Source of the DNA: a virus
Virus genome (UHGV): UHGV-1613795
DNA: 11,447 nt
Direction: 5' to 3' (one strand)
The position numbers and the translations under genes were made by a program. The notes below the pieces were generated by a model, which did no database searches, was not told where the DNA came from, and was given only the letters and a program-made list of their open reading frames with translations. Within the stretch, counting starts at the first letter, position 1; every line of letters starts with the position of its first letter. Below, in pieces: positions 5,442 through 6,393 of this stretch.

Positions 5442-6320
5442 TCAGTAGTTATGTACTGAAGGAGGTAATTCTTTATTCTTAAGTCTCATCCATGCGGAAA
5501 GATTCGTTGGTCCATCTGGCTCATTGATATCAACATCTCGTGTGTGATTGATTAAAACGTCTCTCGCTATATCGATAATACGGGAGAACTCATAACCGCA
5601 GTCATGACATCTGCCGGAATAGTTCGATTGAATTTGTTTTAATGCCGGATACAGTTCGCGGAATAATGCCTGTGAACGGTTGGCATAATCCCATAACCAT
5701 ACAAGGCTGTTTGCTTCTTTTGCAGAAATCTCGTTGGTTTTCTTCTCTTGTTTGCCGATGAACTCACCTTCAAGCACTACCCTGTGGATGTACTCTACGG
5801 CCAGCGGGATTTGTTCAATTGAAAGTTCATCAATGCTGTCAATACCAAAACGCTGATGAACCATATTGTATGCATCGTCATAGCGAAGTCCTTTCTTTCC
5901 TACCAGCATGTTTACTGCATCGCGTAGCGGTGTTCTTTCCTCAACAGTGGTTTTCTTTCCTTTTACATACTCGCCATGTTTGCGAATTGAAGGCAGAACT
6001 TCTGCTGTTACCCACTTGCGGAATTTGTGTGGGACTGAACCTTTATTGACTGCATCGCGGCAGCGCAGAACCAATGTATACATACCTGATTCGCTCACAA
6101 TGCTTAGATTCTGCTCACCACCAAGGGTGTAACTTAAAGTTACTCCCTTTTCATCGTCATCAAGTGCAGTAAGCGCCTTGCGTGAGTTAGTCAAAGCTAA
6201 AGCATCACAAACATCTTTAGCTACAAACCACGGCTCGCCGCACTTGTTAATGACGCGAATTTCACTGTCGCCAAATTTGAAGATGGTGAAATCGTTTTGT
6301 GCCTTTGCTATACTTTTCAT
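5442..6320 (-). CDS. BRO-N domain antirepressor-like protein (Ant-like)
   Basis: 292-aa ORF with ATG at 6320. N-terminal 110 residues ([30 protein letters not shown] ... [19 protein letters not shown]) match the Bro-N/KilA-N-type pattern found in phage antirepressors. Second gene of a two-gene unit behind an Arc-like gene, as ant follows arc in P22. Confidence 0.8.
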
Positions 6321-6352
6321 GTCAATATTTCCCGATCAGATTTGTTGATGTA

Positions 6353-6393
6353 GAAGCCTCGCCAGTTCCCGCTGTCGGGGCTTCGTTATTTTT
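6353..6393 (+). terminator. Plus-strand hairpin plus T-run in the arc-ant intercistronic region (possible terminator of an antisense transcript)
   Basis: GAAGCCTCG (6353-6361) can pair with CGGGGCTTC (6376-6384) with one G-U position and a 14-nt loop, followed by GTTATTTTT (6385-6393). No plus-strand gene ends here, so it would terminate only transcripts antisense to the ant leader. Confidence 0.4.

Follow-up and report, generated by a model that had tools for sequence, protein, structure and literature searches.

The sar RNA of phage P22 is an antisense repressor of the antirepressor gene ant (PMC2629481, PMC11016777). Repression of ant is known from P22 alone, through the work of Liao et al. 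1987 and of Wu et al. 1987 (both cited in PMC2629481), and small-RNA sequencing of P22 infections has detected sar reads (PMC13397905). The P22 record places the ant start at 15091 and sar at 15090-15021 on the opposite strand; its Psar promoter feature covers 15097-15125, and arc ends at 15022. The plasmid ctRNAs (e.g. RF00236) and the phage oop RNA are likewise small, structured, and fully complementary antisense RNAs ending in an intrinsic terminator; however, they act on another class of target, and their homology to the element described here is limited to the generic terminator shape. In this work, the arc-ant region of the UHGV virus genome UHGV-1613795 was analyzed, a DNA stretch of 11,447 nucleotides (nt), hereafter called the window. 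An original prediction, made from the letters of the window, had placed a candidate sar-like RNA over the ant ribosome-binding site. The present analysis supports this proposal: the geometry is that of P22, the P22 family model aligns over its full length, and both helices show covariation. The plus-strand element at 6321-6393 is very probably a sar-type cis-antisense RNA gene that would repress ant translation. The production of the RNA, its exact ends, and the repression of Ant would follow the P22 example.

The layout of the locus was compared with the P22 record. The ant gene of the window is encoded on the minus strand, with its ATG at 6320-6318 and a Shine-Dalgarno sequence GGGA at 6333-6330, 9 nt from the ATG. 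The start is fixed at 6320, and none lies further upstream, because an in-frame TGA is present at 6338-6336. On the plus strand, the complement of the start codon (CAT) is found at 6318-6320, and the predicted first nucleotide of the RNA, G6321, adjoins it. With ends placed according to the P22 annotation, the predicted RNA (6321-6393) would be about 71-73 nt long, that is, about 72 nt compared with the 70 nt annotated for P22 sar. As in P22, the promoter lies 6-34 nt inside ant, the RNA would start beside the ATG, and its 3' end would fall 2 nt into the arc stop codon. Both RNAs are antisense to the arc-ant gap and to the ant ribosome-binding site, and both have two hairpins, with an anti-Shine-Dalgarno sequence in loop I. 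The arc-ant intercistronic region is fully complementary to the predicted RNA, a complementarity that is complete by construction.

Stem-loop I (6321-6349) has a 7-bp stem, in which 6321-6327 pair with 6343-6349, and a 15-nt loop. The loop carries UCCC (6330-6333), the complement of the ant Shine-Dalgarno sequence. Stem-loop II and the U-tract (6353-6393) form a predicted intrinsic terminator with a 14-position stem (6353-6366 with 6371-6384). The stem contains 13 pairs and one C.U mismatch (6362/6375), and is closed by the 4-nt loop UCCC at 6367-6370. The tail GUUAUUUUU follows at 6385-6393, with the end of the U-tract lying inside the arc stop codon (6392-6394). The hairpin followed by GTTATTTTT ending at 6393 is present as originally described, but the large loop ascribed to it was wrong, as can be seen from the stem and the short loop. 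A simple promoter and terminator scan disallows the C.U mismatch, and reports only inner sub-hairpins of this terminator. Folding of 6321-6393 had been named as a check on the original prediction. For the 73-nt plus-strand RNA, a folding energy of -26.4 kcal/mol (z = -4.9) was obtained, which was equalled by none of 200 shuffles; this fold includes the terminator hairpin and, in addition, the 5' hairpin at 6321-6349. The complementary minus strand folds at -16.7 kcal/mol (z = -2.2). A U-run after the hairpin is found on the plus strand only, and none is found on the minus strand. Two other roles of the terminator were rejected: a bidirectional terminator for arc, because the minus strand has no U-run, and a terminator for mnt, because mnt is located further downstream on the plus strand and is followed by a terminator of its own (6963-6986).

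In pairwise alignment with P22 sar, the segment TTGCTATACT-N3-CATGT is kept, with TTGCTATACT identical, and the outer terminator arms GAAGCC...GGGGCTTC are conserved. Pairing is kept through changes, such as U-A to A-U in stem II and G-C to A-U in stem I. However, stem I is GUCAAUA/UGUUGAU in the window and GUUGGU/ACUGAC in P22, the sequences of loop I and of the inner terminator differ, and the U-tract of the window is longer. Stem I of Escherichia phage Kapi1 is identical to that of the window. The Rfam sar model (RF00262) matched 6322-6388 with 28.5 bits (E=0.0013), covering model positions 1-68 of 68. The score is this low because the stem I, loop I, and inner terminator sequences differ from those of P22. 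A covariance model (R2) was built from 22 relatives, with copies of the window's own variant left out. It matched 6321-6395 with 76.1 bits (E=1.4e-16), which was the sole strong match in the 11.4-kb window. A weak match to ctRNA_pGA1 in Rfam (23.2 bits, far below the family threshold) came from the terminator hairpin; identity with this RNA was rejected as generic terminator similarity. By its sequence, the element is a divergent member of the known sar family (RF00262), and as such would be biologically ordinary.

Protein searches with Ant, together with DNA searches, recovered this cassette from Escherichia phages Kapi1 and PhiR5_1, Edwardsiella phages GF-2 and Edno5, and a Klebsiella phage, and also from prophages of E. 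coli, Tatumella, Rosenbergiella, Brenneria, Rahnella, Enterobacter, and Pasteurella. The Stx-converting phages are about 89% identical to the ant-arc-mnt region of the window, a match to the region as a whole; in Stx-phage lysogens of E. coli O157, the ant regions match at about 89%. At least 14 IMG/VR loci, as well as E. coli chromosomes, carry the sar variant of the window without change. Positions 6200-6700 were matched by 456 of 5426 complete E. coli genomes (about 8%), mostly over the part containing the 5' end of ant and sar; Stx-converting phages are among these matches. E. coli FDAARGOS_1288 and the chicken isolates Z1323CEC0001, Z1323CEC0009, and Z1323CEC0016 share 98.6% identity with the window across 6200-6700. 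A scan of IMG/VR with the terminator core showed an antisense start codon 24-42 nt away at 118 of 120 loci among the matches listed. At one locus (IMGVR_UViG_2636415741_000001, 6956-7012), a sar-like terminator core is antisense to the start of a REP_ORF2-G2P/RepSA-like gene, not of an antirepressor gene. The model match there is weak and partial (40 bits), and the locus was set aside as a possible false or atypical member.

All of the 24 relatives tested fold with a 5' hairpin beside the start codon and a terminator hairpin. RNAalifold on a plain MAFFT alignment recovered stem II only; stem I was missed because indels had misaligned it, and realignment to the covariance model corrected this. 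With 25 sequences aligned to the covariance model, compensatory changes were observed in 12 of the 20 pairs. With 73 distinct homologues, they were observed in 14 of 20 pairs, with 120 cells changed on both sides. In this larger set, 92.7% of cells were paired, compared with 31-47% when the partners were slid, and none of 500 shuffles reached the observed values. All six modelled pairs of stem I were compensatory; in the terminator stem, 8 of 14 pairs were compensatory, and 97.8% of cells were paired.

Watson-Crick covariation alone is blind to strand, and the same hairpins might work in the sense transcript of arc-ant instead, serving as a processing site, a translational coupling element, or an attenuator, with no antisense RNA being made. 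The minus strand also folds somewhat better than its shuffles, as its z value indicates, and in P22 the target ant mRNA reportedly forms complementary hairpins as well (Schaefer and McClure 1997). However, the kinds of pairs that occur do depend on the strand. G.U cells on the sar strand numbered 108, compared with 4 A.C cells, as is characteristic of selection for plus-strand pairing. The paired fraction was 92.8% for the sar strand and 71.9% for the mRNA strand, and the mean fold energy of the relatives was -28.3 kcal/mol on the sar strand compared with -18.2 kcal/mol on the mRNA strand. Taken together, the G.U bias and the U-run, which follows the hairpin on the plus strand only, place the selection for this structure in the antisense transcript rather than in the arc-ant mRNA. 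A role in the sense mRNA would also leave the conserved extended -10 promoter, which is kept at a fixed distance, without a function, and the homologous element of P22 is annotated and reported as a transcribed antisense RNA (PMC13397905). The sense-mRNA explanation is very improbable.

The promoter assigned to the antisense RNA lies inside ant. The -35 hexamer GTGAAA at 6286-6291 falls within ant codons 10-12. After a 17-nt spacer, the -10 hexamer TATACT is found at 6309-6314, in codons 3-4. These elements were confirmed as originally reported, and the scan adds a TG at 6306-6307, giving the extended -10 element TGcTATACT (6306-6314, codons 3-5) on the plus strand. The -10 hexamer sits 3 nt from the CAT, and the -35 hexamer is as distant from the ant ATG as is the far end of the Psar feature annotated in P22. 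The original prediction had regarded the promoter as weak. This holds for the -35 hexamer; as a whole, however, the promoter is of the extended -10 type and matches the annotated Psar of P22. Among 16 diverse relatives, TAnnnT was found in 16, the 3-nt gap to CAT in 15, and the upstream TG in 14. The hexamer variants were TATACT, TATAGT, TATGAT, TACAAT, TAAACT, TAAAAT, TACACT, and TATTAT. The ant gene of the window uses ATA for Ile, a codon whose third base provides the -10 hexamer with its first T; ATA is a rare codon in E. coli.

Because the -10 hexamer is located within coding sequence, it might be a by-product of the Ant codons M-K-S-I-A, and the hairpin might be a recombination linker without RNA function. 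Mosaic junctions do lie exactly at both ends of the element, at about 6384-6393 and about 6305. At least 10 different and unrelated upstream genes abut the terminator, with their ends in the sar U-tract. Among them are several Arc-like alleles and a gene for a Cys-rich small protein; some of these upstream small proteins lack a ribbon-helix-helix pattern. Different ant alleles share the same sar and are joined at about 6305, such as the P22_AR_N-type Ant (307 amino acids, aa) of E. coli RM10410. However, the variants of the hexamer change residues 2-4 of Ant, and T1, A2, and T6 are always kept, usually with the TG. The residue pairs encoded across these variants are S-I, T-I, I-I, I-V, S-L, I-L, S-V, and N-N. 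The downstream proteins sharing the promoter are unrelated beyond about residue 6, and the -10 element is kept before Ant proteins with four families of N-terminal domain (P22_AR_N, Bro-N, KilA-N, and ORF6N). Since the residues and the N-terminal domains vary while the consensus is kept, the constraint acts on the consensus positions of the promoter rather than on the peptide. A pure linker would conserve sequence, and would not show compensatory changes or a strand bias of G.U pairs. The by-product and linker explanation is very improbable.

The original prediction had also stated that no plus-strand gene exists here. Two mechanical open reading frames (ORFs) in the six-frame list, 6178-6348 and 6299-6457, do overlap the region, so the statement does not hold literally; nothing supports these ORFs, and in this sense it stands. 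A small plus-strand protein encoded by either of them would have to be read antisense to ant and arc, and no ribosome-binding site is evident for them. Beyond 6393, at least 10 unrelated sequences replace one another in relatives that keep the RNA, and the ORFs are considered unsupported for this reason. The variation within the element is RNA-like, with paired changes and G.U pairs, and not codon-like. The probability of a small protein at this position is close to negligible.

Several observations weigh against a sar-type antisense RNA gene. The promoter scan alone is at chance level, with 2 sites found against 2.8 expected in shuffles, and the -35 hexamer matches the consensus TTGACA at only 4 of 6 positions. 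The terminator has an interrupted U-tract (UUAUUUUU) and, within its stem, the C.U mismatch. The ant Shine-Dalgarno sequence GGGA of the window is weaker than the GGAG of P22. The pairs were counted in alignments fitted to the model, and the pattern by which the 62 added sequences had been chosen prescribes the outer bases of the terminator; therefore, only stem I and the inner terminator pairs provide unbiased evidence. Finally, the RF00262 score is below the curated gathering score of 43. For this reason the default Rfam search reports nothing, and at gathering thresholds no Rfam match was found anywhere in the window. The gathering score is an operational cut-off and not a biological feature. 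P22, Kapi1, and Tatumella terrea span 63-98 bits with RF00262 (97.8 bits for P22 and 72.4 bits for Kapi1), and most non-P22 relatives score 28-41 bits, under the 43-bit threshold. These sub-threshold relatives, together with Kapi1, which shares stem I with the window, bridge the gap to P22. The element as a whole exceeds chance, unlike the promoter match alone.

The sar-type reading implies the following mechanism. An extended -10 sigma-70 promoter in the first ant codons would fire on the plus strand, opposing arc-ant transcription. This Psar-like promoter may be constitutive or influenced by Pant; in P22, Psar is activated by convergent transcription from Pant, which was not used as evidence here. 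The transcript would start at G6321 and, owing to the intrinsic terminator formed by hairpin 6353-6384 and the U-tract reaching 6393, end within the arc stop codon. This would yield a two-hairpin RNA of about 72 nt, whose loop I presents UCCC to the GGGA of ant. Pairing with the arc-ant mRNA would hide the ant ribosome-binding site up to the base before the start codon; the duplex would block ant translation, and arc would stay translatable. In this way, a post-transcriptional control of the antirepressor would be added to the transcriptional control by Arc and Mnt. The arc-ant gap at this locus would then be a gene, not a spacer, and by analogy the antirepressor output of this prophage is probably under P22-like post-transcriptional control. 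What is mildly new is the setting, a GF-2-like myovirus-type prophage, and the reach of the family; the known mechanism is unchanged.

The genes around the element form a module of the P22 immI type, in which divergent Arc-family genes flank an operator-like region and arc lies upstream of the antirepressor gene. The target gene ant (5442-6320, minus strand) encodes 292 aa with a Bro-N domain and a P22AR C-terminal domain (P22_AR_C). Compared with P22 Ant, the protein is a domain chimera: the C-terminal 171 aa are 83% identical, whereas the N-terminal 121 aa are Bro-N and not P22_AR_N. Other sar-linked antirepressors carry KilA-N or ORF6N domains at the N-terminus. The arc-like gene (6392-6553, minus strand) encodes 53 aa with a ribbon-helix-helix pattern, and the final U residues of the terminator fall within its stop codon. 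The protein is only distantly related to P22 Arc (38% identity over 29 aa), and its Pfam Arc score is 17.5 bits, under the cut-off of 20.4. The mnt-like divergent repressor gene (6655-6975, plus strand) encodes 106 aa, which is another difference from P22, and scores 69.9 bits with Pfam Arc. The divergent promoter region between arc and mnt contains operator-like sequence repeats (6572-6635, no strand assigned). An 18-nt exact direct repeat AGCAATATGCCATCATTG is found at 6591-6608 and 6618-6635, and a near-palindrome ATGGCATTATGCC at 6573-6585. By their sequences, these repeats are probably Arc/Mnt-type operators. GF-2 has analogous GGCCATAATGCCACCA repeats, and has its arc type, mnt type, and genome type in common with the window.

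The host element is a GF-2-like myovirus-type prophage (E. coli-type) with baseplate J, DUF2612, neck terminator, and SLT genes; in this it differs from P22, since it is a prophage with baseplate genes and not a P22-like podovirus. Intrinsic terminators were found 3' of ant (5405-5424, minus strand) and 3' of the mnt-like gene (6963-6986, plus strand). With clean terminators after both genes, the immI-like module looks like a self-contained insert in the cluster of tail and baseplate genes.

The sar family extends well beyond its current annotation. The four phage records inspected (Kapi1, GF-2, Edno5, and PhiR5_1) carry no RNA feature at the element, and neither do the two RefSeq E. coli regions inspected. 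The absence from the RefSeq regions is explained by the Rfam scores, because most non-P22 relatives fall below the 43-bit threshold. The ImmI region of Edno5 was described as Ant, Mnt, and Arc, without sar (PMC6372524). In Kapi1 (1743-2687) and GF-2 (1822-2697), the annotated ant coding sequence starts 66-81 nt upstream of the conserved ATG, and thereby extends over all of sar and overlaps the stop codon of arc. The conserved ATG, the position of the Shine-Dalgarno sequence, and the in-frame TGA of the window suggest that these annotated starts are over-extended. A broader covariance model would correct many annotations, and would allow the study of antirepressor cross-talk between co-resident prophages.

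A more tentative and rather unlikely extension is that the sar cassette might be a portable control unit and recombination joint of antirepressor modules, with the variants of loop I and stem I acting as immunity classes. It would account for the linkage of at least 10 upstream genes to antirepressors of at least four N-terminal domain families, in podovirus-, myovirus-, and lambdoid-type prophages of Enterobacterales and Pasteurellaceae. The loop I/stem I variants are discrete, CCCGAUCAG in the window compared with CCUAAGCCG or CUCCAAGG elsewhere. Such classes at the RNA level are conceivable because sar can act in trans. If so, a resident prophage, even a defective one, might silence the same-class antirepressor of incoming or co-resident phages.

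The window was also compared with a 94-99% identical prophage of E. coli FDAARGOS_1288. Relative to this prophage, the window lacks about 3.3 kb (8957-12222 of that prophage; junction at 8078-8155 of the window), which hold a DUF3383 gene, a 'phage tail fiber protein' gene, two small genes, and the 5' part of an SLT-domain gene. The SLT gene of the window (7044-8078) is consequently 5'-truncated. Given the missing tail-region genes, the prophage is probably tail-defective. In the same comparison, about 0.85 kb is likewise missing from the window downstream of ant (window 5385-5442).
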